DNA of 64,000 nucleotides from Chloroflexota bacterium (GTDB lineage: Bacteria; Chloroflexota; Anaerolineae; Aggregatilineales; UBA3940), in contig JAZIGM010000048.1 in NCBI GenBank assembly GCA_036679085.1, positions 12,002 to 76,001 on the forward strand. Direction: 5' to 3'. Below, one piece after another: positions 1 to 42,961 of this stretch. The notes under the pieces were generated by a model. That model made no database searches. It was not told the DNA's origin and worked only from the letters and a program-made list of their open reading frames with translations. Each line of letters opens with the position of its first letter. Position 1 is the stretch's first letter. Both the position numbers and the translations under genes were made by a program.

Positions 1-1323
1 CCGCACATGGAAGGGGACCTGCGTGCTCGTGCGGATGACGAGCCGGTCGTCCTCGTCCCACCACGTCATGGCGATGTGCGGCTCGATGGGCGCCTGCTGC
101 ACCTTTGGGCTGTAGTACGTGTCCTCGAAGATGTAGTCCGCCTGCGCAAAGCCCGCCTCGACATCGCCAAGCTCCCAGTCGATCACCGCGGCGAGGTTGC
201 GATTGCGGTCCTCGATGTTCCAGCTTTCTTCCTCGTCGTGGATGATCGGCGCGCCCGGCTTCATCGCCTCACGCGGATCGAAGATCGCCGGCAGCACCTC
301 GTACTCCACTTCGATGAGGTCGAGCGCCCGCTGCGCGATCTCCTCGGTTTCGGCGGCGACGGCGGCGACGCGGTCGCCCACCCAGCGCACCTTGTAGTCC
401 AGGCTGTAGTTATCGTGCGGGCCCGGCTCCGGGTGCGACTGGCCCGCCGTCGTATAGGGGACGCGCGGCAGGTCTTTGTACGTCAGCACCGCGTGCACGC
501 CCGGCAACTCGCGGGCCTTGCTCACGTCGATGTTCTTGATCAGCGCGTGCGCGTGCGGGCTCCAGAGGATCTTCGCGACAAGCATCCCCCGGTGCTCGAT
601 GTCGTCGGTGAAGGCGGGCTTGCCCTGCACCAGCTTCAGCGCATCGACTTTGGGCTCCGGCTTGCCGACGTAATCCCGCGCCCGCTCCTCGCTCACGACC
701 ATCGTCGGCATCGGCGTGGTCTTGACGACCGTGCCGCCGTCGGCGGTGGGCACAGCCGGGGGCTCCTCCTGCTGGACGGGCTTGAACAGCCCCTCCGGCA
801 CAGGGACCGCCCCCTCCTGGAAGATGGGCGGGACTTCCTCGCCGCGCATGACTGCCGCCGCGCGGAGCACGGCCTGCACCGGTTTGAGATACCCGGTACA
901 GCGGCACAGCACGCCGCTCAGCGCCTCGCGGACCTCCGCCTCGGTCGGGTTGGGGTTCTCCTCAAGCAGCGCCTTGGCCGCCATGATCATGCCGGGCGTG
1001 CAGTACCCGCACTGGATGGCGCCCGTCTCGACAAACGCTTCCTGCAGGGCATGGAGCGGCTCGCTGCCGCGCCAGCCGCGCTGCTGCTGCCCGCCGACGC
1101 CCTCAATCGTCTCGACTTCGTGGCCCTCCACCTGGGCCGCCAGCATGACGCACGTGCTCACCGGCTTGCCATCGAGCAGCACCGTGCACGCGCCGCACTC
1201 GCCCGTCTCGCAGCCGTGCTTCACGCCGACGACGCCGTTCTCGCGCAGCACGTCGAGCAGCGTCTGGCTGGGGCGAGCGTCAAATGTCACATTCTCGCCG
1301 TTTAGCCTGAAGGTGATGTTCAT
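1..1323 (-). CDS. Xanthine dehydrogenase/aldehyde oxidoreductase family protein: fused N-terminal 2x[2Fe-2S] domains plus molybdopterin-binding large subunit (XdhD-like). N-terminal 441 codons only; runs off the left edge.
   Basis: Absent from the ORF track because it has no stop in the window. My minus-strand translation from ATG at 1323 reads MNITFRLNGENVTF..GCETGECGACTV..CGYCTPGMIMAAKALL.., followed by a hammerhead-like domain. The start overlaps the upstream stop (ATGA). Confidence 0.8.
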   Translation of the reverse strand, partial: MNITFRLNGENVTFDARPSQTLLDVLRENGVVGVKHGCETGECGACTVLLDGKPVSTCVMLAAQVEGHEVETIEGVGGQQQRGWRGSEPLHALQEAFVETGAIQCGYCTPGMIMAAKALLEENPNPTEAEVREALSGVLCRCTGYLKPVQAVLRAAAVMRGEEVPPIFQEGAVPVPEGLFKPVQQEEPPAVPTADGGTVVKTTPMPTMVVSEERARDYVGKPEPKVDALKLVQGKPAFTDDIEHRGMLVAKILWSPHAHALIKNIDVSKARELPGVHAVLTYKDLPRVPYTTAGQSHPEPGPHDNYSLDYKVRWVGDRVAAVAAETEEIAQRALDLIEVEYEVLPAIFDPREAMKPGAPIIHDEEESWNIEDRNRNLAAVIDWELGDVEAGFAQADYIFEDTYYSPKVQQAPIEPHIAMTWWDEDDRLVIRTSTQVPFHVR

Positions 1324-2165
1324 GATGCTGTCCCGCCTTCCGCCTCAGTCTCATACCCGATTCGTGCCAGTGCCGCCGACAGCGCGCGCCGGGCCACCAC
1401 CGGGGCAATCGCCAGGCGATAGTCCGGGCGGCCCAGGTAGTCCGACTTCACATCTGCCGGGTTGATGTCTGCTGTCAGCGCGTCCAGCCCGGAGAGGTCC
1501 GGCCACTGAATGTCGAAGTCGAGCAGCTTCAGGCCGCTTGCCAGCAGCCCGCCGACCGCCACGCGGGCGGAAAGCGTGCCGCTCTCGACCTCCCGCACGA
1601 CCGCAGCCGCGCTCACAATCGGCTGATCAACCGGGGTCCGCGCCACCTGCTCGTAGGCCGTGCCGACCTTGCCTTCGGCCAGGCGCAGCTCGACGGCGGT
1701 GATGAGGCGGCCCTGCAAGCCTCCGGCAGGCACGCCCGGCCAGGGGATCAGCTCATCCTGCCCGGTGACGGCCATCTCCGCGCCGAGCGCGGCCAGCGCC
1801 ACCCCGAGCGGGCTATCAACTTTGCCGGCAGCCAGCGTGCCGCCGATTGTCGCAACGTTGCGGATGTTCCAGCCGGCCATGCGGTGAGCGGCTTCCGCCA
1901 GCAGCCCGCCAAACGCATCGCCAAGCTGCTCGACGATCGTCTGCAGCCGCACCATTGCGCCCAGCCGCAGCACGCCGTCTTCCGTGTGAATGGTATCCAG
2001 CCCGAGTTCCGATAAGTCTACCACCGCCTCGACGTCGGGGTTGCGCTGCCCGACCAGGTCCGTCCCGCCTGCGAGCGGCACGGTGCGGATCTCCGGGCGC
2101 TGCAGGAGCCGTAGCGCCTCGTCAAGATCGCGCGGGCGATGGTATTCGCGCAGATTGTATAACAT
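1320..2165 (-). CDS. Molybdopterin-dehydrogenase FAD-binding subunit (CoxM/XdhB/YgfM-like)
   Basis: 281-aa ORF. MLYNLREYHRPRDLDEALRLL..VPLAGGTDLV matches the FAD-binding subunit pattern. Translationally coupled to the Fe-S/Mo subunit gene. Confidence 0.85.
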   Translation of the reverse strand: MLYNLREYHRPRDLDEALRLLQRPEIRTVPLAGGTDLVGQRNPDVEAVVDLSELGLDTIHTEDGVLRLGAMVRLQTIVEQLGDAFGGLLAEAAHRMAGWNIRNVATIGGTLAAGKVDSPLGVALAALGAEMAVTGQDELIPWPGVPAGGLQGRLITAVELRLAEGKVGTAYEQVARTPVDQPIVSAAAVVREVESGTLSARVAVGGLLASGLKLLDFDIQWPDLSGLDALTADINPADVKSDYLGRPDYRLAIAPVVARRALSAALARIGYETEAEGGTAS

Positions 2166-2276
2166 CTGTGACCTTCCTTGCTGTCACTGCTCAGCACCGT
2201 GATGCACAGGCTCAACCTGAGTGTAGCGTGTGGTCACCCCTTCCGGCCTGAGAGATAGGTATGGCATAAAACCGGG

Positions 2277-2837
2277 TCAGTCATGGGCCGCAGCCAGCTC
2301 CTCGTCCGAATAGACCCGCCAGCCGAGACGTTCTAGATCAGAATCAGATAGAGCGCCGCTGCCCGGCATCTCGACAAGCGTAACGTCAGCCTCCGCCGCA
2401 ACCGTGCCGTCGGGCAGGCGCAGTTCGCTGTGCGCCTGTACGATCCGGCCCCGGTCTTTCAACAGGCGTCCGATGAGTGTGAGTTCGGTGTTGGTGGGAA
2501 CCGGCTGCCGGTAGCGAACGTTCAGCTTGCCGGTGAACATGAAGCGGTTGGGGTTGGAGATCATCGGGGTGCGCCCGGCAATCTCGTCGAGCAGCGCCGC
2601 CACGATACCGCCATGCACAACGCCGGGATATCCCTGGTATGCCTCAGGCGCGGTGTAGCGTGCGCGCACCTCGTCCCTGCCGTTGTCCTCAAAGCTCACC
2701 TTGAGGCCGACGGGGCTCTCCAGCCCGCACACAAAGCAGTGGCGGGAGTTTGGCTGCCGGGTCCGCTCGTCGTGCTGATGCTCGGACTGGCTCACGGGGC
2801 ATACCTCGGCACTAGGGTGGGGTGAACCCCTCCCCAT
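2277..2837 (-). CDS. PaaI/hotdog-fold thioesterase; start codon uncertain
   Basis: 186-aa ORF with CFVCG..GLKV and GVVHGGIVAALLDE motifs typical of PaaI-type thioesterases. The N-terminal ~25 aa may not be translated. Confidence 0.65.
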   Translation of the reverse strand: MGRGSPHPSAEVCPVSQSEHQHDERTRQPNSRHCFVCGLESPVGLKVSFEDNGRDEVRARYTAPEAYQGYPGVVHGGIVAALLDEIAGRTPMISNPNRFMFTGKLNVRYRQPVPTNTELTLIGRLLKDRGRIVQAHSELRLPDGTVAAEADVTLVEMPGSGALSDSDLERLGWRVYSDEELAAAHD

Positions 2838-2890
2838 GCAGGCGGCTGTGCCACCTGCCGGGGAGAAATGATGATGCGATTTCCCCTGTC

Positions 2891-2915
2891 CCCCTCCCCT
2901 TTAGCGGGGAGGGGG
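2891..2915. repeat. GC-tract hairpin (cccctcccc / ggggagggg, 9-bp stem)
   Basis: Perfect inverted repeat read directly between the LLM oxidoreductase stop and the thioesterase start. Similar C/G-tract hairpins occur at 27679-27722, 34438-34465 and 45864-45886. Confidence 0.6.
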
Positions 2916-2954
2916 TGTATTGCAGGGGTGGAGTTGACGGATCCGTTCGCCGGT

Positions 2955-3953
2955 CTAGTTGACGGCGAACGCGTCGATCATGTACTTGACGTCCGGGCCA
3001 AGCGGGTACAGGATCGGGCAGGTGCAGCCGTTGTCGATGTACTCCTGCACCTTCGCGCGGCACTCCTCGGGCGAACCGGCGGCGGCAACCATCTGCACCA
3101 TCTCGTCGGGCACCAGCTCCATCGCCGACTCGATCTCTTCCTCGGTGGCGGGCCAGCCCAGCCGCGACTTGATTTCGTTGACCAGCGAGGCATCTGCGCC
3201 GAGCGCCTTGGCGAAGTGCGGCTGCTGCGCGAGATACTGCGTCACCATCTTCTTTGCGCCGTCCAGCCCGCGGCGGCGATCCGGGTCCATCGAGCACACG
3301 ACAAGCTGCGGGCGGTCGATCTCATCGATGCTGCGGCCTGCCCGCTTGGCACCGGCCTCGATCCGGTCCATCGCCTCAAGGTTGTACTCCGGCTTGACGA
3401 GGTAGTTAAGCACCACGCCATCCGCGATCTCGCCGCTCAGTTCCAGCATCTTGGGGCCGGTCGCGCCGATGTAGATCGGCACGTTGCGCGGACCGGTGTT
3501 GCCGTGTACCACATCCAGCTTGATGCCACGCACCTGCACGAACTCGCCCTCGAACGTCACCGTCTCTGCATTTAGCAGGCGGCGCACCACCTCGACCACC
3601 TCACGCATGGCCTGCAGCGGCTTGGTGCGCTGGATGCCGACATTGGAGGCAAGCGGGTCCCACCAGGCGCCGATGCCGCAGATAACGCGGTCGGGGGCCA
3701 GGTCGTCAAGGGTCAGGAAGGTAGCGGCGATCAGGGCGGCGTTGCGCGTCCAGTTGTTGATCACGCCGGAGCCAACCTTGATGCGCTCCGTGCAGGCGGC
3801 GAAGGCGGCCATCGGCACGATGGCATCGCGGACCAGGCGCGACTCTGCCTGCCATACCGCCTCGAAGCCCTTCTCCTCGGCATACTTCACATACTCAATG
3901 CCGTCGCGAATGGGGTGGGCATCCTGGAGATACAGTGCTACTCGGTCAATCAC
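2955..3953 (-). CDS. LLM-class (luciferase-like) F420-dependent oxidoreductase
   Basis: 332 aa. The N-terminus (..[23 protein letters not shown]..) and overall TIM-barrel pattern resemble Mer/LLM F420-dependent enzymes. Last gene of the F420 operon. Confidence 0.75.
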
Positions 3954-4007
3954 GGTGACATCCTTTCACAAAATACGGGTGTCGTTGGGAACAGAACAAC
4001 CCCGGCG

Positions 4008-4646
4008 CTAGACACTCACCAGCCAGCCCGGCTCATGCAGCTCGCGTTCGATCAGCATCTCGCGGTACAGATCCAGGTCGGCAGGGACGTCAACGTCAAG
4101 GCCGAGGGTTGGCGACTGGTACACGTACACGTCGGCACCCGCCGCCTCCGCAGCCGCACGGTGCTTTTCCAGACTGCCCTCGCCGAACTCGTACGGGAAC
4201 AGCCCCGGCGGCTTGATTAACATGGCATTGGTACCCTCTACCCGCCGGTCCGTGCCGATGACGACCACCGGCGGGTGTTTGGCCATGGCGACCATGTTCT
4301 CGATGTCCTCCGGCTGCAGCAGCGGAATGTCAGAGGCGATGAGCAGCACGCCGCTGACGTTCATCCGCATCACAACCTGAGTCGCCATGGTCAGGCTTGC
4401 GTTCAACTCGGGCGCGCCGCTCTCCTGCAGCGTCTGCGCGCCGAGCTGCCGGGCCAGCGACAGCGCGGCGCTGTCGCGGCTGACGACCATGGTACCCTTG
4501 ATGCTCTCGACCATGTTAAGGGTACGCAGGGTGCGTTCCAGCATTTCCCGGCTTAAAGACTCTCGTTGTTTGATATCCAGAACGGATGATAACCGACTTT
4601 TCGAACGGTTGAGTGGTTTGATTGGCACAATAGCCCAGATGCTCAC
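4008..4646 (-). CDS. cofC: 2-phospho-L-lactate (or PEP) guanylyltransferase CofC/FbiD
   Basis: 212 aa. IWAIVPIKPLNRSKSRL is the characteristic CofC N-terminus. 4-bp overlap with cofD. Confidence 0.8.
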   Translation of the reverse strand: MSIWAIVPIKPLNRSKSRLSSVLDIKQRESLSREMLERTLRTLNMVESIKGTMVVSRDSAALSLARQLGAQTLQESGAPELNASLTMATQVVMRMNVSGVLLIASDIPLLQPEDIENMVAMAKHPPVVVIGTDRRVEGTNAMLIKPPGLFPYEFGEGSLEKHRAAAEAAGADVYVYQSPTLGLDVDVPADLDLYREMLIERELHEPGWLVSV

Positions 4647-5593
4647 AGTTGATCTTCCTCTACCCAGTCCAAGAGGGCGATTGCGAGGTCTACTTTGTTG
4701 TCTAGCGTTTGCATGAGTGTCCGCCGCGCTGTGACCTTGACGCCCAGCGCTTCTATCGGGGCGAGCAAATCTCTATCGGCCTCGTCCAGTATAAACCCAT
4801 CCACCAGTTCTCGATAGTGCTGCACAACGCCGAGCGGGGAGATATCCACGCCCAGTTCGGACATCAATTTGGCCGTCGGGCCTTTGACCGCCTGCCCCGC
4901 AATAATGGGTGTCACGGCGATGCGCGGTACGCGCGCCCCGGCGATCCGCTGGCGGATACCGGGGATCGACAGGATGGGGTCGATGCTCAAAAACGGGTTG
5001 GACGGCCCGAACACAATCAGGGTTGCCGAGTCAAGCGCCTCGGCGACAGCCGGGCTCGGCTGCGCTGCCTCGCAGCCCTCAAAACGAATACGGTGGACCA
5101 CCGGCTGCCAGCGCTCCCGCACGAAATACTCCTGGAAGCCCAGGCTGCCCCGGTCCGTTTCTAATACGGTGCGGACCGCATCATCCGACATCGGCAGCAG
5201 CGTCGGGCCAACGCCGAGCGCCCGGCTCAACTGCCGCGTAATCTCGGTGAGCGTCCTGCCCTGGCGCAGCAGCGCGGTCCGCACCAGGCTGGTGCCGAGG
5301 TCGGCGTCGCCGAGGTTGAACCACGTCGGCCCGCCGTACCGCTCGACCATCTCCATCGCGCGGAAGGTGTCCCCTGCGAGGCCCCAGCCAAACTGCGGGT
5401 TCGCCACGCCGGCGAGCGTGTACATCAGCGTGTCCACATCCGGGGAGATGTGCAGACCCAGATGCTCGAAGTCGTCGGCGGTGTTGACGATCACCGTCAG
5501 CGACTCAGGCGGGAGCACATGGGCCAGCCCCAGGGCCAGCTTCGCCCCGCCGACCCCACCGACAAGCAGCACAACACGGTCGCGGACGCTCAT
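4643..5593 (-). CDS. cofD: 2-phospho-L-lactate transferase CofD/FbiA
   Basis: 316 aa. LVGGVGGAKLALGL..NTADDFEHLGLHISPDVDT are CofD hallmark motifs. Confidence 0.9.
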   Translation of the reverse strand: MSVRDRVVLLVGGVGGAKLALGLAHVLPPESLTVIVNTADDFEHLGLHISPDVDTLMYTLAGVANPQFGWGLAGDTFRAMEMVERYGGPTWFNLGDADLGTSLVRTALLRQGRTLTEITRQLSRALGVGPTLLPMSDDAVRTVLETDRGSLGFQEYFVRERWQPVVHRIRFEGCEAAQPSPAVAEALDSATLIVFGPSNPFLSIDPILSIPGIRQRIAGARVPRIAVTPIIAGQAVKGPTAKLMSELGVDISPLGVVQHYRELVDGFILDEADRDLLAPIEALGVKVTARRTLMQTLDNKVDLAIALLDWVEEDQL

Positions 5594-6213
5594 CGGAACA
5601 CCACCCTCGTCTCAAGTGGCTCGCGGGACCTGGTGCGCTCCTCTGCCGGGTAGCCGAGCGCGATCACGCCCTGCGGCTCGTAGTCAGGCGGCAGGTCGAG
5701 CGCTTCCCGCACCGCCGCCTGACAGAACAGGGGCGCACACATCCACACCGCACCCAGCCCCTCGGCGTGCGCGGCAAGCAGGAGGTTCTGGGCAGCCATG
5801 GCGACACCCTGTACCGCCATCTGGTGCTCGAAGGACTGCCGCCGCTCGTCAGGGTAAGTGTCCATGTCGGCCATCGTCAGGCACACGACGACCAGCGCGC
5901 CCGCGCCGGTCAGCCGCTGGCGGGAGCGGCCTGTATCCTTCGCGATAGCCTCCTCGGAAACACCATCCGCGCGGAGATCGGCTGCAAGCTGCGCGGCCAT
6001 TGTGTCGGCCAGCAGCCGCTTGCTTGCCTCGCTCTCCAGCACGACGAAGCGCCACGGCTGGCGGTTGTGCGCAGAGGGCGCCCACGTCGCCGCGTCGAGC
6101 AGGCGCAGCAGCACCTCGCGCGGCACCGGGCGTGGCTCAAACCGGCGGATCGAGCGCCGCGTATAGATCGCGTGGTACAGGTTTTCTGCCGTAATTTGTC
6201 CCGTCGATTCCAC
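5590..6213 (-). CDS. Nitroreductase-fold protein resembling the FbiB C-terminal domain (candidate dehydro-F420-0 reductase)
   Basis: 207 aa. RRSIRRF..APSAHNRQPWRF is the nitroreductase signature. Lies between cofE and cofD with a 4-bp overlap onto cofD. Confidence 0.7.
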   Translation of the reverse strand: MESTGQITAENLYHAIYTRRSIRRFEPRPVPREVLLRLLDAATWAPSAHNRQPWRFVVLESEASKRLLADTMAAQLAADLRADGVSEEAIAKDTGRSRQRLTGAGALVVVCLTMADMDTYPDERRQSFEHQMAVQGVAMAAQNLLLAAHAEGLGAVWMCAPLFCQAAVREALDLPPDYEPQGVIALGYPAEERTRSREPLETRVVFR

Positions 6214-6271
6214 GTTTGTGTTATCCGGCCCGCGGGAACCCGCAGCCGGCCCGTTGTTGATAATTCAGCCG

Positions 6272-7033
6272 CTACCGGTACAAATCCATCTCACGCGGGC
6301 GCACGAGGTCGGCGGCGCTCGCCTCCTCGTCGGCGGGGTACGTCAGGCCGCGCACAATCACAACCGGCATACCCTCTGCCGCCTGCCCCTGCACCAGCCC
6401 GGCAGCAGCGGCGATCTCATCCGCGAAGCCGACCTCCGTCACCTGCAGTGCCTCGCCGAACAGGTCCGGGCGGCCTCGCATATCCCACAGGGCGGGCAGC
6501 CCGGCGGCGCCAATCGCCACGCCGACCGTGCCCATGCGGAAGGGGCGTCCGTGACTGTCGCTGATGATGACCGCCACCGTCACCCCGAAATGTTCGTTGA
6601 GCGCCGCACGCAGCTCCCGCGCGGAGCGGTCCGGGTTCTCAGGCAGCAGCAGCCGCCACTCGCCGTCCGCCCGCGTGTTGGAGTGGTCCATCCCGGCATT
6701 CGCGCAGACAAAGCCCAGCCGGTGCTCGGCGATGAGCACGCCGCGCCGCATGCGCGAAATACCGGCGGATTCGCTCAGGATGAGCGCGACCTCACGCGGG
6801 TCTTTGCCGACCTCGGCGGCGATGCGCCGCGCCTCCTCGTCCGGCTCGACGGTCGCCAGGTCCACCCAGCGCCCCTCTGCCTTCGAGACGATCTTCGAGG
6901 TCACGACGACGACGTCGCCATCCACGAGGGTCTGGCCGCTCGCCTTGAGCGCCCCGGCGATGATGGCGGCCAGGTCATCCCCCGTTTCGATGAGGGGGAT
7001 GCCCGGCACGCCGATGAGCTGCAACTGCGTCAT
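6272..7033 (-). CDS. cofE: Coenzyme F420-0:L-glutamate ligase CofE
   Basis: 253 aa. [29 protein letters not shown] are CofE motifs. Confidence 0.9.
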
Positions 7034-7036
7034 GAA

Positions 7037-7720
7037 CTAACCGATCCCGGTGATGCGGATGCCGGCGCTCTTCACCTTATAGCGCTTGTTCACGCCGATG
7101 AGCAGCGCGGTCAGGCTCTCAGCGACGATAGCGTTCGCCAGAGGCCCGGCGTCAATGCCGCGTGTGCCCACCGCTTCGACGAGCTTGATGACTTCCTGCC
7201 GGGCTTCCTCGTCGTCGCCGGTCACGAGCACATCGCAGTCAACTTCATGATCCAGATGGTTGAGGTGCACCGCCGATACATTCTGGAAGGCGGACACCAC
7301 GCGCACGCCCTCGCCGAGGAAGGCCTGCGCTTCCTCCGCCGCCGTACGACCTTCAGGCAGCGAAACGACCCACACCGGCGGGGAGAGCGGGACGGTCACA
7401 TCGACGAGGATCTTCCCCTGCACCTCGTTGTACACGCTCTCCAGCGTCGGTCGGTGCGCCGAGTAGGGCACGGAGAGCACGACAATGTCGGCTTCGCGCG
7501 CGGCGTCCGGGTTCGTCATCCCGCGCACGACGTCCTTGCCCAGTTTTTCGTTTAGCTCTGCTGCGGCCCGCTCCGCCTTTTCCTGCTGGCGCGAGCCGAT
7601 GATCACATTGTAACCCTGATGCGCCCAGCGTAAAGCCAGCCCACCACCTTCACTACCGGTTCCGCCAAGCACAGCGATGGTGGGAAGATTGTTGTTCTCT
7701 GGCACGGTGTTGTACTCCAA
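7037..7720 (-). CDS. fno: NADPH-dependent F420 reductase (Fno/NpdG)
   Basis: 227 aa. IAVLGGTGSEGGGLALRWA Rossmann motif of the NpdG family. The track start is TTG; a GTG 15 nt downstream preceded by GGAG is an alternative start. Confidence 0.85.
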   Translation of the reverse strand: MEYNTVPENNNLPTIAVLGGTGSEGGGLALRWAHQGYNVIIGSRQQEKAERAAAELNEKLGKDVVRGMTNPDAAREADIVVLSVPYSAHRPTLESVYNEVQGKILVDVTVPLSPPVWVVSLPEGRTAAEEAQAFLGEGVRVVSAFQNVSAVHLNHLDHEVDCDVLVTGDDEEARQEVIKLVEAVGTRGIDAGPLANAIVAESLTALLIGVNKRYKVKSAGIRITGIG

Positions 7721-7779
7721 TCTGTTGTCGAAGCTCTTGTGTCTGTCGCTAGTTGCAGATGTTCACGCCAGGGACTGTG

Positions 7780-7788
7780 ATTATATCA
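7780..7788 (-). promoter_or_regulatory. Extended -10 promoter element TGATATAAT for the fno-cofE-...-LLM operon
   Basis: The minus strand reads ..ggatgTGATATAATcacag.. about 60 nt upstream of the fno start. Perfect TGnTATAAT. Confidence 0.45.
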
Positions 7789-7854
7789 CATCCACTATGT
7801 CCCCTGCTCGATTCGTTGCCCGCCGCTAACCGACGGAACTCCCGCCCCTCGTCA

Positions 7855-8022
7855 GGGAGCCGCGAAGCTCATTCGCGACGGGTTGGAGCCCTCGCGTCAC
7901 AACTCGCCAGGGAGCCGCGACGTTTAGTCGCGGCGGGTATCACCCCCACTCCTGTGCAGTTAGCTTCGCCTACTGTACGCCCTCATCCCGCATCGTAGGG
8001 AAGCGCGAATAAACTTCGCGGC
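7855..8022. repeat. Three copies of the GCCGCGA(A/C)-N5/6-(T/G)TCGCGGC hairpin repeat family
   Basis: Copies at ~7859-7880 (gccgcgaagctcattcgcgac), 7914-7934 (gccgcgacgtttagtcgcggc) and 8003-8022 (gcgcgaataaacttcgcggc), in the fno/ssnA intergenic region. Confidence 0.8.
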
Positions 8023-8050
8023 AGACTTTTTAGCGGCGTTTTTTTGCGCC

Positions 8051-9418
8051 TCAGCCCGGCAGCGTCGCCTTTGCGTATTCCTCGTAGCGAGCCCAGACCT
8101 CCGGCACGATCTCCCGCGCCCGCGCGGCGATGGCCTCCTCGTCGAGCGTCAGCAGCTTGCGGTCACGCATGAGCACCTCGCCGCCGACGATGGTCGTCGT
8201 GAACATCGACGCCTCGACGCCGAAGATGATGTGCCAGGGCAGGTTGCCCGCCGTGAGCGGCGTGATCGGGTGGTAATCCACCAGCATGATGTCGGCTGCC
8301 GTGCCCGGAACCAGCAGGCCCGGCGCGGTGTCACCGAAGAAGACCTTTGCCAGCGCCGCGTTGTTATGGATGGCCATCTGCACGATGTCCATGCCGTTGG
8401 CGCGGCGCGGGTCGCGGTGCGTGACCTTGTGCAGAAGGTACGACGCCTTCCAGTCCTCGTACATGTTGTTCGTGAAGCCGTCGTTGCCGAGGCACACCGG
8501 GATACCCAGCCGCAGCATCCCCTCGATGTCCGCCGCGCCGACGGCGTTGTTCATGTTGGAGCGCGGCTGGTGCGTCACCCACGTGCCCGTGTCGCGCAGA
8601 AGCTCCGCCTCGCGCATGTCGATGTGCACGGCATGTGCAACGATGGTCTTTTCACCCAGGATGCCGAACTCGTGCAGGCGGTCAACCACCCGCTTGCCGT
8701 ACCTGGTCAGGCTGTCATACTCGTCCGCCTCATGCTCGGCTACGTGGATGTGGAAGCCGGTGTCCAGCCCTTCGGCAGCCTCAGCGCAGGCGGCAAGCGT
8801 CTCGTTCGAGATGCTCAGACTGGCGTGCAGCCCGAAGGTCGCGGCGATGCGGTCATGCCTGGACGCCTCCTTCAGGAAGCGCACGTTCTCCTCGATGCTC
8901 TCGCGGGCTTTGTCCGGCCCGTAGCGGTCGGTCACCTCGTAGCACAGCACGGCGCGCAGCCCTGCCTCGTTCACCGCCTCGGCGATGATGTCCAGCGAGC
9001 CGAGCAGGGCGTTGGGGCTGGCATGGTGGTCGATGAGCGTGGTCGTGCCGTGCTTGATGGCATCCACGAGCAGCACGAGCGCGCTGTAGCGCACGGCTTC
9101 CTCGTCAAGCGCCTGGTCAAGCGGCCACCACAGCCGCTCCAGAATCTCAGGGAAGTCCTTGGGCGCCGGGCCGGGGATCGCCATCCCGCGTGCGAACGCG
9201 CCATAGAAGTGCGTGTGCGCGCAGATGTTGCCTGGCATGATGAGCTGCCCGCGCGCGTCGAGGCGCTCCGCATCGGGGTACTTCGCCTCCAGGTCGGCGG
9301 CGGTGCCAACCTCGCCAATTAACCCGTTCTCGACATAAACCGCGCCCTTCTCGATCAGGTCGGCGCCCGGCTGCCAGGTGACAACCGTTCCATTTGTGAT
9401 CAGCAATGGACCAGCCAT
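8051..9418 (-). CDS. ssnA: SsnA-type putative aminohydrolase (amidohydrolase superfamily)
   Basis: Matches remembered E. coli SsnA motifs: MPG..CAHTHFY, LWWPLDQALDEE, IDHHASPN, RSNMNN. Start moved to internal ATG 9418, preceded by GGGAGAG; the track ORF starts at GTG 9472. Confidence 0.85.
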   Translation of the reverse strand: MAGPLLITNGTVVTWQPGADLIEKGAVYVENGLIGEVGTAADLEAKYPDAERLDARGQLIMPGNICAHTHFYGAFARGMAIPGPAPKDFPEILERLWWPLDQALDEEAVRYSALVLLVDAIKHGTTTLIDHHASPNALLGSLDIIAEAVNEAGLRAVLCYEVTDRYGPDKARESIEENVRFLKEASRHDRIAATFGLHASLSISNETLAACAEAAEGLDTGFHIHVAEHEADEYDSLTRYGKRVVDRLHEFGILGEKTIVAHAVHIDMREAELLRDTGTWVTHQPRSNMNNAVGAADIEGMLRLGIPVCLGNDGFTNNMYEDWKASYLLHKVTHRDPRRANGMDIVQMAIHNNAALAKVFFGDTAPGLLVPGTAADIMLVDYHPITPLTAGNLPWHIIFGVEASMFTTTIVGGEVLMRDRKLLTLDEEAIAARAREIVPEVWARYEEYAKATLPG

Positions 9419-9475
9419 GTGTGTACTCTCCCGTGTACTACTGTTATCGACTGTGCGGATGCTCTGTACCACCCA

Positions 9476-10165
9476 TCAAAGCTGTGAATCGCAGCCTGCC
9501 ACCTTCGCGCTCGCCAGAAGCCCACCGCGCGCCCGGATCGCCGCCTCTACTGCGTCGAGATCCGCCGCGCTGTCACCGAGCAGCGCCAGCGCCCCGGCGG
9601 GCCGCTCCTCCGCCGCGCAGAGCATCACCGGCCCCCTGCGGCACTGTATTAGCAGGTCAACCTGATAGGTGCGCTGCCCTTCGCGGACCGTTACGCTGCG
9701 CTCGGGCTGGATGCCCCGCGCTTTCAATTCCTGATACAGGTAGTCGAGCGTGACATCGTCGGTGCGGTAGAGGTCGTTGACCTCCGTCGCGGTGACGAAG
9801 CGCTCCCACGTCGTCTGGATGAAAGTGATGCGCCGCCAGCGAACACTCACGATCGGCGGGACCTTGCGCTTGAGCGGGCCAAGCTGCAGCTTGAAGTAGT
9901 GGTCACCCGCGCGCGGATGATCGGGCTCATCCGGCAGCAAGTCCACGCGGCGCACTAACTCATGGCCAGTGCGCCGCGCGTAGAAATGTATCGCCCAACG
10001 AAGGTCGGGGCTGAACTTCTTTGTGAAGTAGAAGGCCACGTACTCAGCGTGAATACCGTCCGGCGCATGCCGAACCGGAATGCGGTACCAGTGCTGGTCC
10101 CGTGCGATGTCGAAGTCACGCGGGTCGGGCATCACGCCGACGAGTACGCGGTCTTCCGGATACAT
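9476..10165 (-). CDS. Hypothetical protein (229 aa from ATG 10165), operonic between the PLP enzyme and SsnA
   Basis: Well-formed non-repetitive protein (MYPEDRVLVGVMPDPRDFDIARDQHWYRIPV..). The ATG overlaps the upstream stop (TGATG). I recognise no family. Confidence 0.6.
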   Translation of the reverse strand: MYPEDRVLVGVMPDPRDFDIARDQHWYRIPVRHAPDGIHAEYVAFYFTKKFSPDLRWAIHFYARRTGHELVRRVDLLPDEPDHPRAGDHYFKLQLGPLKRKVPPIVSVRWRRITFIQTTWERFVTATEVNDLYRTDDVTLDYLYQELKARGIQPERSVTVREGQRTYQVDLLIQCRRGPVMLCAAEERPAGALALLGDSAADLDAVEAAIRARGGLLASAKVAGCDSQL

Positions 10166-11583
10166 CACTCGCCGTGGATGTGGTGCTTCTTGCGGAAGGC
10201 GATGATCTGCTCGTCGATCTCGCTCACCATCTTCTGGTGAGCCTCCCACCAGGCCGGATCGCGCTGCGCGTCGAGTTCCTCGACCGTCTTGCCCTGCTGC
10301 TCAACCCAGGTGTAGTACTTGAGGTTGTGCCAGCGCTGGCGCGTTTCCTCAGTGCCCTCGCAGATCCAGTCGGTCTTCTGGCCGAGGAAGGTCGAGGACA
10401 TGATGTGGGCAGCCCGCACCTCGGTCATCTCGCCCTCTTCCTGGCGCAGCCAGTCCATCACCGAGTAGTAGCGGTCGATGGCGTCGGTGAAGATCGTGAC
10501 GATCACGTCGTCCTTGCCCAGGCCGTAGTACTTGGCCGTCTTGATCGCGCCGAGCGTATTGCAGACGCTCGAAATACCCATGACACCGCTGAGCTTCTCG
10601 ACCGTCTCCTCGGGCACGCCGTAGTACTTCGCCAGCGTCGCCTTGCCGACCGGGTCGGTAACGAGCGCCAGGCCGCGCACCGACTCCATGTCGTCGATGC
10701 ACATGATGGCGTCCATGTTCAGCACGTGGTGAACCCACGTGACGTGCTTGTCGCCGATGCCCTCGATGCGGTGCGAGCCATAGCCGTTGTTGTAGAGCGT
10801 CGGGCACTGGATCGGCTCCAGACCGACGATCTTGTGATCCGGCCAGACCTGCTTGAGCCGGTCGCCCGCCGCAATCGTGCCGCCGGAGCCCATCGCCGAG
10901 ACGAAGGCCGAGATCTTGCCCACGCCGATGCCCCGCTCCTTGAGCACATCGGCCAGCTCGACGATGGTGTTGCCCGTCACGTAGTAGTGGAAGCGATAGT
11001 TGCCCATCACTTCAAACTGGTTGAGCACGCGCACCTTGGGGTCCTTGCGCAGCTCCCAGGTCTTGTCATAGATCTCCTTGACGTTGCTCTCCGAGCCGGG
11101 CGTGCCGATCACGCGCGCGCCGAGCCGCTCGATGTACTCGAAGCGCTCGCGGCTCATATCCTGCGGCAGCACGACAATGCCGTCGAAGCCCATGCGGCAG
11201 CCGACGAACGCGCCGCCGATGCCGTAGTTGCCGGTTGAAGGCCACACCAGCGTGTGGATCGCCGGATCCACCTCGCCGGAGAGCTCCTTCTCGACCACCA
11301 CAGAGTACGCCGCACCAACCTTGTGGCTGCCAGTCGGGAAGTCGGTGCTGTACAGCGCGACGATGTTCGCGTCAACGCCGGTCAGCTCCTTCGGCAGAAC
11401 AACGTAGCGGATCTGGTTGTTCTCGTCCTTCCAGGTGATGTTGAAGAGGTTGATCGGGTCGAGTGGGTCTTCTTTCCTGGCCCGCAGCGCCTGGGCGCGC
11501 ACATCCGGATTGATCTTTTCCGGGTGGAGCATCTCGTCGAAGGTGGGGCCGGTGATAATCTTGGTGCCAATCTGTTCTGCCAT
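10165..11583 (-). CDS. PLP-dependent enzyme, fold type II (cysteine synthase/CBS-like), ~80-aa N-terminal extension, function unknown
   Basis: 472 aa. PTGSHKVGAA (candidate PLP lysine), WPSTGNYGIGGAF and SAMGSGGT motifs align with the CysK/CBS family layout. Confidence 0.7.
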   Translation of the reverse strand: MAEQIGTKIITGPTFDEMLHPEKINPDVRAQALRARKEDPLDPINLFNITWKDENNQIRYVVLPKELTGVDANIVALYSTDFPTGSHKVGAAYSVVVEKELSGEVDPAIHTLVWPSTGNYGIGGAFVGCRMGFDGIVVLPQDMSRERFEYIERLGARVIGTPGSESNVKEIYDKTWELRKDPKVRVLNQFEVMGNYRFHYYVTGNTIVELADVLKERGIGVGKISAFVSAMGSGGTIAAGDRLKQVWPDHKIVGLEPIQCPTLYNNGYGSHRIEGIGDKHVTWVHHVLNMDAIMCIDDMESVRGLALVTDPVGKATLAKYYGVPEETVEKLSGVMGISSVCNTLGAIKTAKYYGLGKDDVIVTIFTDAIDRYYSVMDWLRQEEGEMTEVRAAHIMSSTFLGQKTDWICEGTEETRQRWHNLKYYTWVEQQGKTVEELDAQRDPAWWEAHQKMVSEIDEQIIAFRKKHHIHGE

Positions 11584-11668
11584 AGCTATTCTCCTCTACA
11601 GTCAGAATAAAGGTTGGTGTTCGCGCAACTATCTGTGAGTGCTCGACAGTCGTTGTTGCCAGTTTCGA

Positions 11669-12688
11669 TTATTCGCCGCGCTGGCTCTCGTAGTAGTGCT
11701 CCGGCGGCAGCGTTTGGGCCGCCCGCGGCCTGGGCGATGGACGCCGCTCCATACCGAGCGTGCTCGCGACGAGGTAGAGCGGGCGGCCTTTCACCTCGTT
11801 ATAGATGCGCCCCAGGTACTCCCCGATGATGCCCAGCGAGATGAGCTGCACCCCACCCAGGAAGAGCACCATGATGAGCGTCGTCGCCTGCCCCTGCAGC
11901 GGGGCGGCATCGGTGAAGAGCCGCAGGTAGACCACCACCACAATGCCCACTGCGCTGAGCGCGGCGATGGTAAAGCCCAGATACATGGCAAGCTGCAGCG
12001 GGAAGTACGAGAACCCGGTGATCGCATCCCAGGCGAGGCGTAGCATCTTCCTCAGCGTGTACTTGGTCTCGCCCGCGTAGCGCTCGTGACGCTCGTACTC
12101 AACCCCGGTCTGCCGGAAGCCGGCCCATGCCACCATGCCACGCACGAAGCGGTGTCGCTCGCGCATCGCGTTCACGACGTCCACCACCTGCCGGTCCATC
12201 AGCCGGAAGTCGCCCGTATCAAGCGGGATGTTGATATCCGTGATGCTCGACAGGATGCGGTAAAAGGCCGCCGCGGTGAAGGTCTTGAACCACGTCTCAC
12301 CCTCCCGCTTGGCGCGCACGGCATACACGACCTGATAGCCCTCCCGCCACTTCGCGATGAGGTCCAGAATCACCTCGGGCGGGTCCTGCAGGTCGGCGTC
12401 GATGAGCACCACCGCGTCGCCGCTGGCATAGTCCATCCCGGCGGTGACGGCAGCGCTGTGCCCGAAGTTGCGCGCAAAGTGGATCGCGCGCACGTGCTCC
12501 GGGTCGTGCTCATAGAGCTCGTTGATCAGCTCCATCGAGCCGTCGGTACTGCCGTCATTGACCAGCACCAGTTCCCAGCTTACGCCGGCCTGCGCCATCA
12601 CCTCGGAGACGCGGCGGTGCAACTCGTGGATATTGCCAGCCTCGTTATAGATTGGTGCGACGATTGATAGGACAGGAGTCATGAGCAA
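11669..12688 (-). CDS. GT2 polyprenyl-phosphate glycosyltransferase (DPM1/ArnC/GtrB-like) with C-terminal TM helices
   Basis: 339 aa. [28 protein letters not shown] are GT-A motifs, with two hydrophobic C-terminal helices. Confidence 0.8.
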
Positions 12689-12745
12689 ACACTTTGCCGG
12701 CCACGCGGCCTCAGCGTCCCTCCCAGCACGGGCTATTGTAACCGC

Positions 12746-14008
12746 TTACGAGCCAAAAATCCCGTTTATCACCTGGGAGGCTTCGGCGAGGTCCGGCGAG
12801 ACCTTCGGTGCCTGCCGCACAGCCTTCTGAGCCGCCGCCACGTCCTTCAAGCCGTTGCCGGTGATGAGCGCGACGATCTCCTCGTCGGGCGCAAACACGC
12901 CCTCCTTCGCCGCCTTGAGCAGCCCGGCATACGTCGCGGCTGCCGCCGGTTCGGCAAACACGCCGGTGGCTTGCGCCAGCTTTGGGATGGCGGCCAGGAT
13001 CTCCTCGTCGCTGACGGTCAGGTAGATGCCGCCCGTCTCGGTGACGGCGCACATCGCCTTGACGCGGTCACGCGGGAGCCCGGCGCTGATGCTGTCCGCG
13101 ATGGTATTCGTCTTGATAGGCTGCATCTCAGCCGGGTCGAGGCCCTCTTTCCAGGCGTTGTACAGCGCCGCCGAACCTTCCGCCTGCACGCCGATGAGGC
13201 GCGGCACGCGGTCGATCCAGCCCAGCGCATACATGTCCTTCAGGCCCTTATGCACCCCGGCGATGATATTGCCGTCGCCCACGCTGACGATGATCGTGTC
13301 CGGCGCGCGGAACAGCCCGCGCTTGCCGGTCAACTGCTCGCAGATCTCGTAGGAGACGGTCTTTTTGCCCTCCGCCGTGTACGGGTTGTAGCCCGTGTTG
13401 CGGCAGTACCAGCCATACTTCTCCGTCGCGGCGAGGCACAGCTCGAACGCGTCGTCGTAGGTGCCGTCCACAAGCAGGACGTGCGCCCCATAGACGAGAA
13501 GCTGTGTGATCTTGGCCTCCGGCGCGCTGGCAGGCACGAAGATCACCGTCGGCATCTGCACGCTGGCGGCAAGGCCGGCGAGCGCAGCGGCGGCGTTGCC
13601 CGTGCTCGCCGTCGTCACGATCTTGCGGCCCTCTGCCCTGGCCTTGGCTACCAGCAGCGCGCTGGCCCGGTCCTTGAGCGAGGCGGTCGGGTTGCGCCCG
13701 TCGTCCTTGATCCAGACCTTCCCGACGCCGATCTCTTTGGCGACGTTGTCCGCGCGGTAGAGCGGCGTATCGCCCACGAGGAGCGGGGGCGTCGGGGCAT
13801 TGTAGGCGATAGGCAGCAGCGCCTTGTAGCGCCATATGCCGCGCACGTCGAGCAGCCCATCTTCCTGCAGGCGGTCGGCAATCAGCTCATAGTTGTACTG
13901 CACGTCGAGATTGCCGTCATTACCGTGGTCCGGGCAGACGTACTCGACCTCGCCGGGCGCATAGGTTTTACCGCAGATCGTACACTTCAAGCCGGTGACG
14001 TGTTCCAT
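12746..14008 (-). CDS. thrC: Threonine synthase(-like) PLP enzyme with N-terminal Zn ribbon
   Basis: 420 aa. CTICGKTY..YVCPDHG ribbon, NPTASLKDRAS PLP-lysine motif, TASTGNAAAALA. Confidence 0.7.
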   Translation of the reverse strand: MEHVTGLKCTICGKTYAPGEVEYVCPDHGNDGNLDVQYNYELIADRLQEDGLLDVRGIWRYKALLPIAYNAPTPPLLVGDTPLYRADNVAKEIGVGKVWIKDDGRNPTASLKDRASALLVAKARAEGRKIVTTASTGNAAAALAGLAASVQMPTVIFVPASAPEAKITQLLVYGAHVLLVDGTYDDAFELCLAATEKYGWYCRNTGYNPYTAEGKKTVSYEICEQLTGKRGLFRAPDTIIVSVGDGNIIAGVHKGLKDMYALGWIDRVPRLIGVQAEGSAALYNAWKEGLDPAEMQPIKTNTIADSISAGLPRDRVKAMCAVTETGGIYLTVSDEEILAAIPKLAQATGVFAEPAAAATYAGLLKAAKEGVFAPDEEIVALITGNGLKDVAAAQKAVRQAPKVSPDLAEASQVINGIFGS

Positions 14009-14047
14009 GATGTGGAAGTTTGCCTCTTTTCCTTACCGTCAGTCCGC

Positions 14048-17816: not shown

Positions 17817-17932
17817 AAGGTAGCGCTTTCTGTCGCTAGTGCCAGGTGTCCGTTATGAGTGACATCAGGGGGTGAGAGAGAGCGGCCTGATCAGCCGCTC
17901 TCTCCGCCCATCGGCTCAATGATGCAGGCTCG

Positions 17933-19264: not shown

Positions 19265-19396
19265 AGTAGTGCTCCTTCCTCCTCATAGAGGGACTCAAAG
19301 AGTCTATTACTGGTAAGCCCCGGTGTGGTGCAGGTGAGGGCTTACAGGGAGGCCGATAGGCGGGTAATTCACGGACGCTACCGGCTTCCTTTATAA

Positions 19397-19425
19397 CAGG
19401 GAGGCAGCGGGCTGCCGCCTCCCTG
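19397..19425 (-). terminator. GC-rich hairpin just downstream of the carbamate kinase stop (no clear U-tract)
   Basis: cagggaggc..gcctccctg inverted repeat read directly, 13 nt after the arcC stop. May be a terminator or processing site before the ABC operon. Confidence 0.35.
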
Positions 19426-19437
19426 CCATAAACGGTG

Positions 19438-20391: not shown

Positions 20392-20429
20392 ATCAGGTAT
20401 CGTCTATTCCTCGATAGCTCAGATGGCGA

Positions 20430-39824: not shown

Positions 39825-39845
39825 GCCGCGAATAAACTTCGCGGC
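39825..39845. repeat. Hairpin repeat gccgcgaataaacttcgcggc
   Basis: Identical 21-mer also at 42463-42483; a near-identical copy at 8003-8022. Confidence 0.85.
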
Positions 39846-40010: not shown

Positions 40011-40038
40011 AGTGTCCGCCAGAGAGAAGAGCAAGTTT

Positions 40039-41325: not shown

Positions 41326-41338
41326 GGAGAACAGCAGC

Positions 41339-42427: not shown

Positions 42428-42462
42428 GTGGGGCTGCTATCCCCTCGCCCCGCTTGCAAGCA

Positions 42463-42483
42463 GCCGCGAATAAACTTCGCGGC
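42463..42483. repeat. Hairpin repeat gccgcgaataaacttcgcggc
   Basis: Identical to the copy at 39825-39845. Confidence 0.85.
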
Positions 42484-42740
42484 TACCTCCTCTGTTTCTG
42501 GCAGAGGGCGTGCAGGGATGAGGGGCGGGTAATCTAACGCTAATTTTGTGGGGACGGGCCGCCCGGCGAGGTAAAACCGGGCGGTCCTGGCTGCCATCGG
42601 GCCTGTGAAACTCATCTGATAGGTTTTGACAGTCCCGCTGATAGCTTCTGAAAGTATCGCCAAAGATAATTACACTAGGCGCGGCAGCATACGCCGCCGA
42701 GCCGGAGACAGACGATCGAGAGGTTGAAAAGGACACGACC

Positions 42741-42941: not shown

Positions 42942-42961
42942 CCGGAGTTATCATAGCGATT

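Follow-up and report, generated by a model that had tools for sequence, protein, structure and literature searches.

A coenzyme F420 gene block beside ssnA in Chloroflexota as a candidate replacement for the YgfK step of reductive urate degradation

Which enzyme reduces the purine ring in a bacterium whose genes for reductive urate degradation include no ring reductase of a known kind? The question is raised by a 64-kb stretch of Chloroflexota DNA (contig JAZIGM010000048.1; hereafter the window, within which all positions are counted), where genes for the biosynthesis and use of coenzyme F420 lie between ssnA and homologs of ygfM and xdhD. The steps of reductive urate degradation became known only in 2025: XdhD-YgfM (or XdhAC) converts urate to 2,8-dioxopurine (yanthine), YgfK or UacX, the PydA-like counterpart of YgfK in C. 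difficile, reduces the ring with NAD(P)H, and SsnA opens it, the later enzymes being HyuA, YgeW/YqeA (or UacY), YgeY and YgeX (Li et al. 2025, PMC12507026; bioRxiv 10.1101/2025.04.24.650524). Ring reduction is the thermodynamic bottleneck of this route, and the known ring-reducing enzymes are oxygen-sensitive Fe-S or ferredoxin-linked proteins. From gene content, we consider it rather probable that the F420:NADPH oxidoreductase Fno and a luciferase-like enzyme, here called LLM1, replace YgfK as a 2,8-dioxopurine reductase coupled to SsnA.

The hypothesis is sound, and the idea behind it is already in print as a bioinformatic remark. An earlier reading of the window (the initial annotation) knew of no description linking F420 to this pathway; in two sentences, however, Li et al. 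(2025, PMC12507026) had noted a putative F420 luciferase-family reductase in Chloroflexota in place of YgfK/UacX and proposed an F420-dependent yanthine reductase. Their supplement holds nothing further on this variant, and a full-text literature search for ‘F420’ together with ‘ssnA’ returned only their article and its preprint. A review of F420 from 2021 (PMC8498797) leaves purine, urate and xanthine unmentioned and reports F420-dependent enzymes as experimentally studied in no bacteria outside Actinobacteria. The window resembles the published variant in having SsnA and a PF00296 protein within a few genes, and neither YgfK (IPR017701) nor UacX (PF01180). What the present analysis adds is the embedded fno gene with four genes for the F420 tail, a conserved ssnA-fno-cofE core, a second LLM family found with ssnA, Acidobacteriota loci in which ssnA accompanies LLM1, and the active-site residues that set LLM1 apart from the methylene-tetrahydromethanopterin (H4MPT) reductase Mer.

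The F420 block occupies positions 2955–7720 of the minus strand, between ssnA and ygfM/xdhD, and comprises the following genes, listed here with ssnA.

2955–3953, minus strand: LLM1, luciferase-like oxidoreductase of 332 aa (PF00296, E 1.2e-69)
4008–4646, minus strand: cofC/fbiD, phospholactate/phosphoenolpyruvate guanylyltransferase (TIGR03552, 161 bits, cut-off 105)
4643–5593, minus strand: cofD/fbiA, 2-phospho-L-lactate transferase (TIGR01819, 298.6 bits, cut-off 257)
5590–6213, minus strand: stand-alone nitroreductase-fold protein, homolog of the FbiB C-terminal part, FbiBc (PF00881; PRK13294 residues 254–441)
6272–7033, minus strand: cofE, F420-0:gamma-glutamyl ligase (TIGR01916, 295 bits, cut-off 181)
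7037–7705/7720, minus strand: fno/npdG, F420:NADPH oxidoreductase (TIGR01915, 233.7 bits, cut-off 150)
8051–9418, minus strand: SsnA amidohydrolase of 455 aa (NF005540, 534.5 bits, cut-off 444; TIGR03314, 517.3 bits, cut-off 455.5)

Profile searches bore out the content and order that the initial annotation had given for these six co-directional genes (fno, cofE, a nitroreductase-fold gene, cofD, cofC and an LLM gene), and cofC, cofD, cofE, npdG and SsnA every one score above their NCBIfam equivalog cut-offs. The spacing of 3–4 nt that had been claimed for the block holds at three junctions (fno/cofE, +3 nt; FbiBc/cofD, -4 nt; cofD/cofC, -4 nt), whereas cofE/FbiBc and cofC/LLM1 are separated by 58 and 54 nt. 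Two start codons call for a comment: alternative gene calls place that of cofC so as to give 178–212 aa, and that of fno is probably the GTG at 7705 (222 aa), which has GGAG upstream. The nitroreductase-fold protein reaches 158 bits with TIGR03553, below the cut-off of 249.6, and has BluB as its next-best match; we infer that it acts as dehydro-F420-0 reductase. SsnA, which is 36% identical to the E. coli enzyme over its full length, is predicted to be the ring-opening hydrolase acting on reduced 2,8-dioxopurine.

No gene for FO synthase (cofG/cofH/fbiC), nor for any radical-SAM family, was found in the window by a Pfam/NCBIfam scan of the codon-bias-supported open reading frames (ORFs) of at least 290 aa, except for four that were read by eye from their translations (S1, an amino-acid-binding protein, an M23 peptidase and MutS2); FO synthase may be encoded elsewhere in the genome. 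Two large ORFs taken up as FbiC candidates at related loci (L-numbers denote loci found by SsnA or LLM1 searches) were set aside: the 843-aa ORF upstream of ssnA in L045 encodes a NACHT/HEAT protein, and the 967-aa ORF in the L018 operon a histidine kinase.

In the reading that we favor, XdhD-YgfM would reduce urate to 2,8-dioxopurine, and LLM1 would transfer hydride from F420H2 straight onto this electron-poor ring. Fno would regenerate F420H2 from NADPH; in bacteria, the enzyme is described as working towards F420H2 (PMC8498797). SsnA would hydrolyze the reduced ring at once and so pull the unfavorable reduction forward, after which the hydantoinase, the carbamoyltransferase with carbamate kinase, YgeY and pyridoxal-phosphate (PLP) enzymes would complete the pathway. 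The cofactor itself would be made from FO, whose supply is presumed, by CofC, CofD, the FbiB-C-like reductase and CofE, encoded between ssnA and LLM1. The coupling to SsnA has a precedent: Li et al. (2025, PMC12507026) detected no product with YgfK on its own and argued that the step depends on the pull of SsnA. This need explains why reductase and ssnA genes co-localize, and the same logic would apply to ssnA beside fno and an LLM gene.

The initial annotation had cast YgfK as the presumed electron feeder of the system. Recent work has shown that YgfK itself catalyzes the NAD(P)H-dependent reduction of 2,8-dioxopurine, and the hypothesis thereby becomes one of non-orthologous replacement of that single step. 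The gene order ygfK-ssnA-ygfM-xdhD attributed to E. coli agrees with the annotation of strain MG1655; the statement that the F420 block sits where E. coli has ygfK does not, as the E. coli gene lies upstream of ssnA, on the other side from ygfM.

The first line of evidence is the absence of a known yanthine reductase. With E. coli YgfK, PreT and PreA as queries, PreA serving as a proxy for UacX, tblastn gave no match in the window (E ≤ 1e-3), in keeping with the earlier observation that it holds no YgfK-like gene. A ygfK ortholog just past the left edge had been named as a possibility, and this flank could be inspected on contigs that are 99.4–99.8% identical to window positions 1–13953 and reach 7 kb further: among their Pfam-annotated gene calls there is no YgfK or PydA-like protein, and the flank encodes the remainder of XdhD, a maturation factor of the XdhC/CoxI type and a second xanthine dehydrogenase (XDH), of the canonical kind. 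The same three queries were also negative by tblastn against 80 related ssnA loci, taken with flanks of up to 10 kb per side, and against 80 LLM1 loci. As far as the sequences tell, the YgfK step is the sole step of the pathway without a candidate of a known kind.

The second line of evidence is the conservation of the neighborhood. We took SsnA as query with one genome per species, retained the top 80 loci (64–78% identity) and surveyed 10 kb on each side by tblastn. Almost all of these loci belong to Anaerolineae (Aggregatilineales/Aggregatilineaceae, Anaerolineales, Ardenticatenaceae, Promineifilaceae and Thermoflexus), with several from Acidobacteriota. Downstream of ssnA and on the same strand, fno and cofE were found together in 64 of the 80. 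Restricting the count to the 42 fully flanked loci (at least 6 kb upstream and at least 7 kb downstream), fno lies directly downstream on the same strand in 37 and cofE in 38, an F420-type LLM gene is present in 38 (LLM1 in 25, a second LLM family in 13), and fno or an LLM gene in all 42. The adjacency, whose presence in related genomes had been left to be checked, extends to two phyla. An Xdh gene, in comparison, occurs in just 12 of the 42 and PLP genes in 8; the link of ssnA to the F420 genes is thus tighter than its link to other genes of the pathway.

The reverse search, with LLM1 as query against metagenome contigs (67–91% identity), gave a matching picture. Of the 27 relatives whose upstream flank reaches at least 6.5 kb, ssnA is present in 19 and cofC/cofD in 23; where the flanks are complete, ssnA or an Xdh-family gene is present in 14 of 15 loci, and LLM1 follows cofC in 50 of the 60 loci with sufficient upstream sequence. 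The adjacency of ssnA and F420 genes is far beyond chance, and ssnA-fno-cofE is its most conserved core. Such counts, with the absence of YgfK or PydA-like proteins, lend support to the proposal of the initial annotation that F420H2 and Fno stand in for YgfK and that the LLM enzyme acts on a purine intermediate.

Five architectures could be distinguished. Type A is the complete cluster, of which the window is an example; here and at 11 related loci, these genes are embedded in the full urate pathway. Type B retains ssnA-fno-cofE-fbiBc-cofD-cofC-LLM1 as a unit; at the single type-B locus checked, L045, the flanks are unrelated (NACHT, TetR and chorismate-binding proteins). Type C combines ssnA-fno-cofE with a divergent upstream gene for the second enzyme, LLM2, and the two flanks checked (L010 and L058) hold housekeeping genes. 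LLM2 belongs to the TIGR03560/Rv1855c F420 family (269 bits, cut-off 231; 307 aa, at 8439–9362 of the minus strand in L058) and occurs in L058 and in no fewer than 22 further loci of type C (e.g., L008, L011, L013, L020, L035 and L040), in genomes of Promineifilaceae/Ardenticatenaceae type, where SsnA scores 540 bits against the equivalog cut-off of 444. A search for an active-site motif common to LLM1 and LLM2 found just 29% identity over 128 residues and no common WW motif. A secreted 412-aa protein without family match follows cofE in type-C loci.

Type D, found in Acidobacteriota and in L056, has XdhD, PLP enzymes, ssnA and LLM1 and no F420 biosynthesis genes. In the acidobacterial locus L071, LLM1 is followed at 13077–15624 by a CN-hydrolase (carbamoylase-like) and then a PF07969 UacY-like amidohydrolase; these two stand in place of the carbamoyltransferase with carbamate kinase and of YgeY, and genes for two aldo-keto reductases and a GMC oxidoreductase border the cluster. 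In type E (metagenome loci L093, L119, L128, L150 and L161), cofC-cofD-fbiBc is divergent from LLM1, which is followed by genes for an FAD/Fe-S subunit and a fused Fe-S/Mo hydroxylase in L119 and by Xdh-family matches in L150 and L161.

The third line of evidence concerns LLM1 itself. Its top NCBIfam matches are all F420-dependent LLM families, led by Mer, and none reaches its cut-off (the best model, Mer PRK02271, gives 196.7 bits against 276). Among solved structures, Mer (E 1e-43, 32% identity), FGD1 and Adf are the nearest in sequence. The AlphaFold2 model of LLM1 (pLDDT 88, pTM 0.88) superposes on Mer with a TM-score of 0.84–0.86, and a Foldseek search of the PDB with this model returned F420-dependent LLMs for all of the top 30 ranks, FMN monooxygenases appearing from rank 31.

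Using the mutational study of M. jannaschii Mer as residue reference (PMC11094777), we compared functional positions across 54 LLM1 sequences (63–100% identity, Acidobacteriota included). The Gly61-Val62 cis-peptide that forms the backstop under F420 in Mer corresponds to G63-V64 of LLM1, invariant in the 54 sequences and predicted to be the non-prolyl cis-peptide backstop position after strand β3, and the Mer Asn at the end of β6 corresponds to N183. The substrate side differs: in the HMMER alignment, the catalytic Glu6 of Mer is replaced by Tyr8, the pterin-binding Asp96 by Trp98 and Phe233 by Gln239. The first of these equivalences we infer from an ungapped extension of the alignment and from the position of β1 in the model (residues 6–9). 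Y8, Q10, D11, H13, W68, W97, W98, N183, Y184, Q239 and Y240 are invariant in all 54 sequences, while D99 is Asp in 53 and Glu in one; those of the invariant residues that stand on barrel strands sit at strand C-termini in the model, that is, on the active-site face. By sequence and model, LLM1 is predicted to belong to the F420-type enzymes and to have a substrate pocket that differs from that of Mer and is rich in aromatic residues.

LLM1 is 100% identical to a protein annotated from metagenome-assembled genomes of Aggregatilineales, and the frequent name ‘methylene-H4MPT reductase’, an automatic JGI annotation as Mer, is probably wrong for it. That LLM1 is a genuine Mer, or a methylene-folate reductase of Mer-like kind that supplies the FolD/FTCD encoded elsewhere in the window, was rejected, as it falls under the Mer cut-off and the catalytic Glu and pterin-binding residues are replaced; a Mer-like one-carbon role was also rejected because the reductive urate pathway frees no one-carbon unit.

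Comparison with known systems places the proposed reaction among related ones. Mer (PDB 8QPL, 1Z69) is the closest solved homolog, shares the backstop Gly-Val and the β6 Asn, and moves a hydride from F420H2 to a C=N-type acceptor; it differs in the score and the three residues given above. A chemical parallel is offered by the picrate reductase Fht, which belongs to the LLM family and uses F420H2 to place a hydride on an electron-poor aromatic ring (PMC8498797). This Fht/Npd hydride transfer is a first catabolic step carried out on an LLM fold with an NADPH:F420 oxidoreductase as partner, on a nitroaromatic substrate rather than an oxopurine; the parallel is drawn at the level of fold and reaction. 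The Fht/Npd genes are clustered with an Fno/NpdG gene in Rhodococcus and Nocardioides. With YgfK, also named DOPOR (NADPH:2,8-dioxopurine oxidoreductase), and UacX, LLM1 would share the reaction, the obligatory coupling to SsnA and NADPH as net electron source, in its case via Fno. The proteins are non-homologous: YgfK is a 1032-aa Fe-S/FAD/FMN enzyme and UacX has an FMN dihydroorotate dehydrogenase (DHODH) fold, whereas LLM1, a TIM barrel of 332 aa, has no Fe-S motif and would need a diffusible deazaflavin and a separate Fno.

The F420 block does not stand alone. Beyond what the initial annotation had described, it lies inside a purine-catabolic cluster of at least 27 kb, in which all genes from 1 to 27384 are on the minus strand (the genome has a G+C content of 62–69%). 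The remaining genes of this cluster are as follows.

1–1323, minus strand: XdhD-like fused 2Fe-2S/Mo hydroxylase, first 441 aa, truncated at the window edge (Pfam Fer2, Fer2_2, Ald_Xan_dh_C, MoCoBD_1)
1320–2165, minus strand: YgfM-like FAD-binding subunit (PF00941, E 4e-24; 29% identity to E. coli YgfM)
2277–2795, minus strand: hotdog-fold (THEM4/PaaI-like) thioesterase of 172 aa (PF03061; PDB matches 2ov9 and 2prx)
9476–10165, minus strand: conserved 229-aa ORF between the CysK-like PLP enzyme and ssnA (40–71% identity in 13 related loci)
10165–11583, minus strand: CysK/SbnA-like PLP enzyme (profile match)
11669–12688, minus strand: GT2 polyprenyl-phosphate glycosyltransferase (profile match)
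12746–14008, minus strand: ThrC-like PLP enzyme (profile match)
14048–19264, minus strand: BMP/PnrA-type ABC transporter, with two permeases, ATPase and binding protein (PF02608 Bmp)
19438–20391, minus strand: carbamate kinase (407 bits, cut-off 266; 49% identity to E. coli YqeA)
20430–21413, minus strand: carbamoyltransferase (37% identity to E. coli YgeW; under the YgeW cut-off)
21610–22812, minus strand: YgeY hydrolase (TIGR03526, 470 bits, cut-off 321; 41% identity to E. coli YgeY)
22890–24599, minus strand: adenine deaminase (above NCBIfam cut-off)
24609–25994, minus strand: D-hydantoinase/HyuA-like protein (TIGR02033, 467 bits, cut-off 393; 40% identity to E. coli HyuA)
26017–27384, minus strand: 8-oxoguanine-deaminase-like protein (above NCBIfam cut-off)

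The XdhD-like protein, 989 aa long in the near-identical contigs, is predicted to reduce urate to 2,8-dioxopurine. The fragment in the window is 35% identical to E. coli XdhD, and a full-length copy (L163; 37% identity, 608 bits) contains the XdhD-specific loop with a Glu aligned to E606 of the E. coli enzyme. TIGR03313 gives it 709 bits against a cut-off of 1102, with XdhA models nearly as high, and TIGR03312 gives the YgfM-like subunit 66 bits against 241; both assignments are predictions from architecture and one loop, the curated cut-offs not being reached. The ygfM end overlaps the xdhD start by 4 nt, which matches the E. coli arrangement. Given the remainder of XdhD, the XdhC/CoxI factor and the second XDH in the left flank, the locus is predicted to encode the whole route from purine through urate to pyruvate. 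The second XDH comprises, in the 15746–20999 region of L163, an FAD and Fe-S subunit of 479 aa and a Mo subunit of 737 aa, with an ORF of 118 aa and a DUF6909 protein of 576 aa between them.

Compared with the uricolytic cluster of E. coli (ygeW-ygeX-ygeY-hyuA-yqeA ... ygfK-ssnA-ygfM-xdhD), the window shares homologs of SsnA, the fused XdhD, YgfM, HyuA, YgeY, the carbamoyltransferase and carbamate kinase (the E. coli queries YqeA, YgeW, YgeY, HyuA, SsnA, YgfM and XdhD match window genes at 29–49% identity), and in both a reductase function, proposed for the window, adjoins ssnA. It differs in lacking YgfK, in a carbamoyltransferase that is not a YgeW equivalog, in the F420 genes and LLM1 between ssnA and ygfM, and in including feeder deaminases, an ABC transporter that probably takes up purines or nucleosides, and a second XDH. 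It also has no YgeX ortholog: the sole match to E. coli YgeX is the ThrC-like gene, at 25% identity. The two fold-type-II PLP genes, which are kept with ssnA in Chloroflexota and Acidobacteriota (also in L025, L038, L056 and L071), are candidate YgeX replacements for processing diaminopropionate or albizziin.

The hotdog-fold gene, between LLM1 and ygfM/xdhD, corresponds to the PaaI thioesterase gene that had been reported after the block, and it recurs in many type-A loci and several metagenome loci. The 229-aa ORF has no match in Pfam, NCBIfam or the PDB and could be an unrecognized component of the pathway. In two relatives (L004, 17600–20371; L015, 16650–19244), a hydrophobic protein of 860–920 aa is inserted between the hotdog/ygfM gene and xdhD; such large ORFs were examined as possible reductases and discarded, as they have no similarity to the Xdh and YgfK queries and their translated N-termini are hydrophobic, so that they are probably membrane proteins. 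Clusters of this kind tolerate seemingly unrelated envelope genes, such as the GT2 glycosyltransferase and these hydrophobic proteins.

Conserved genes such as the 229-aa ORF enter the alternative that we take most seriously, while still judging it unlikely: that the F420 system serves the purine cluster and LLM1 is not the yanthine reductase. LLM1 would then feed XdhD-YgfM for urate dehydroxylation, or reduce or oxidize another intermediate, and the reductase would be an unrecognized protein (e.g., the 229-aa ORF or the hotdog protein) or the product of a gene elsewhere. The conserved genes without assigned function inside the cluster speak for it, as do the type-E loci, where LLM1 adjoins fused Fe-S/Mo hydroxylase genes even without ssnA in the flank, and the fact that no physiological electron donor is known for clostridial XdhAC. 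On the other hand, the YgfM-like FAD subunit is able to take NAD(P)H and is translationally coupled to xdhD as in E. coli, LLM enzymes pass a hydride straight to a small molecule and not to a partner protein (PMC8498797), and at type-B and Acidobacteriota loci the partner gene of LLM1 is ssnA rather than xdhD. It is, moreover, the YgfK step alone that has no candidate.

The ssnA-fno spacer brings in a second alternative. This spacer measures 330 nt in the window, compared with a median of 93 nt in relatives, and contains two features.

7776–7790, minus strand: TGTGATATAATCACA, an extended -10 promoter-like element in a perfect 6-3-6 palindrome, containing TGATATAAT at 7788–7780
7848–8022, no strand assigned: three copies of REP-like 21-nt palindromic repeats of the GCCGCGAAGTTTATTCGCGGC type, which fill the spacer

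The element TGATATAAT, which the initial annotation had already placed before the block as an element of its own, includes a perfect TATAAT hexamer, of which the 64 kb contain only seven. Four of the seven, among them that of fno, precede a listed ORF start by no more than about 75 nt, and TATAAT is also found in the ssnA-fno spacer of L001, L002, L004, L084 and L086 (three SsnA loci and two LLM1 loci). A scan for the sigma-70 consensus did not flag the fno promoter and found no -35 match, and the element was judged by the rarity and placement of its hexamer; these, with the hexamers in the spacers of five relatives, indicate that the F420 block probably has its own promoter, which is compatible with a cofactor operon. 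The palindrome TGTGAT-ATA-ATCACA occurs once in the window, is absent from all related loci, and could, as it surrounds the -10 box, double as an operator. Repeats of the GCCGCGAAGTTTATTCGCGGC type were located at 7859–7877, 7914–7934, 8004–8022, 39825–39845, 42463–42483 and 45925–45945, all intergenic. A riboswitch or other known RNA was also sought in the spacer; Rfam at gathering thresholds gave no match anywhere in the window. With a promoter-like element of its own and a repeat-filled spacer before it, co-transcription of fno with ssnA is not implied here.

These features suit an explanation without any functional link, in which a housekeeping F420 operon with its own promoter and a general-purpose F420 enzyme would lie beside ssnA by inherited Anaerolineae gene order. 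The TATAAT element is kept in close relatives, the long spacer follows ssnA in the window, unrelated genes (GT2, multi-TM proteins) are tolerated in these clusters, the 80 SsnA loci all fall in one clade, and LLM1 follows cofC in 50 of 60 loci. We nevertheless hold this explanation to be improbable, a shade more so than the preceding one: ssnA-fno-cofE persists in types A, B and C while the other flanks are reshuffled, in Acidobacteriota ssnA stays paired with LLM1 although F420 biosynthesis genes are lacking there, Xdh operons headed by LLM1 run divergently from cofC-cofD, and YgfK/UacX are absent from every locus examined.

Several observations nonetheless weigh against Fno and LLM1 as the replacement of YgfK. 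The top 80 SsnA loci represent one clade, and their conservation is partly shared descent. Many type-C loci keep ssnA-fno-cofE without LLM1 within 10 kb and carry instead the unrelated LLM of the TIGR03560 family, the sampled loci of type B (L045) and type C (L010, L058) have no other purine genes nearby, and some LLM1 loci have Xdh genes and no ssnA in the flank (type E). The search for YgfK and UacX covers the window, its flank and the related loci, and a copy elsewhere in the genome is possible. The XdhD and YgfM homologs are both under their NCBIfam cut-offs, the window scan gave no FO synthase, and, with a separate -10 box and a 330-nt repeat spacer, the F420 block may be regulated apart from the purine genes. 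In the sampled type-B and type-C loci, the substrate of SsnA and of the F420 system could be a different one.

The explanation that generalizes this last point, namely that the SsnA-like amidohydrolase and F420 enzymes of Chloroflexota act on some other reduced N-heterocycle (pyrimidine, pterin or deazaflavin-related) and that purine genes are neighbors in some genomes, we regard as very unlikely: L045, L010 and L058 do lack Xdh, hydantoinase and YgeY within 10 kb, in groups that make up most of the 80, type C has a different LLM family and SsnA is just 36% identical to the E. coli enzyme, but type-A and type-C SsnA score 534 and 540 bits against a cut-off of 444, the full urate pathway surrounds these genes in the window and 11 related loci, and XdhD carries the loop of E606 type that is linked to the formation of yanthine.

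Returning to Fno and LLM1 as the replacement of YgfK, a wider version can be put forward, though it is doubtful as a whole: F420 may be made chiefly for purine catabolism in much of Anaerolineae and, by transfer, in some Acidobacteriota, with LLM1 as an Fe-S-free 2,8-dioxopurine reductase, the biosynthesis operon subordinate to ssnA, and LLM2 recruited independently beside ssnA-fno-cofE in Promineifilaceae/Ardenticatenaceae. If this version is true, the ‘anaerobic’ reductive urate pathway could run in facultative or aerobic bacteria of sludge and soil, and F420 would have its first defined physiological role in Chloroflexota. Should LLM1 perform the chemistry of YgfK, whether or not the wider version is true, a small F420 enzyme free of Fe-S clusters would be a non-orthologous replacement of the ring-reducing step; it would give F420 a concrete physiological role in Chloroflexota, correct a widespread automatic annotation as methylene-H4MPT reductase, and provide an alternative part for engineered uricolytic strains.

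Two observations were made elsewhere in the window. At 40012–43363 of the plus strand, mevalonate-pathway genes are grouped: HMG-CoA reductase, HMG-CoA synthase and a DUF35-like OB-fold protein, the last recognized from its translation alone. The murA gene (47039–48329, plus strand) shows an apparent frameshift near 48005; the Pfam match breaks off at residue 306 (of 427), and a C-terminus of canonical MurA type is encoded in the +1 frame up to 48329, as would result from an assembly error or in a pseudogene.

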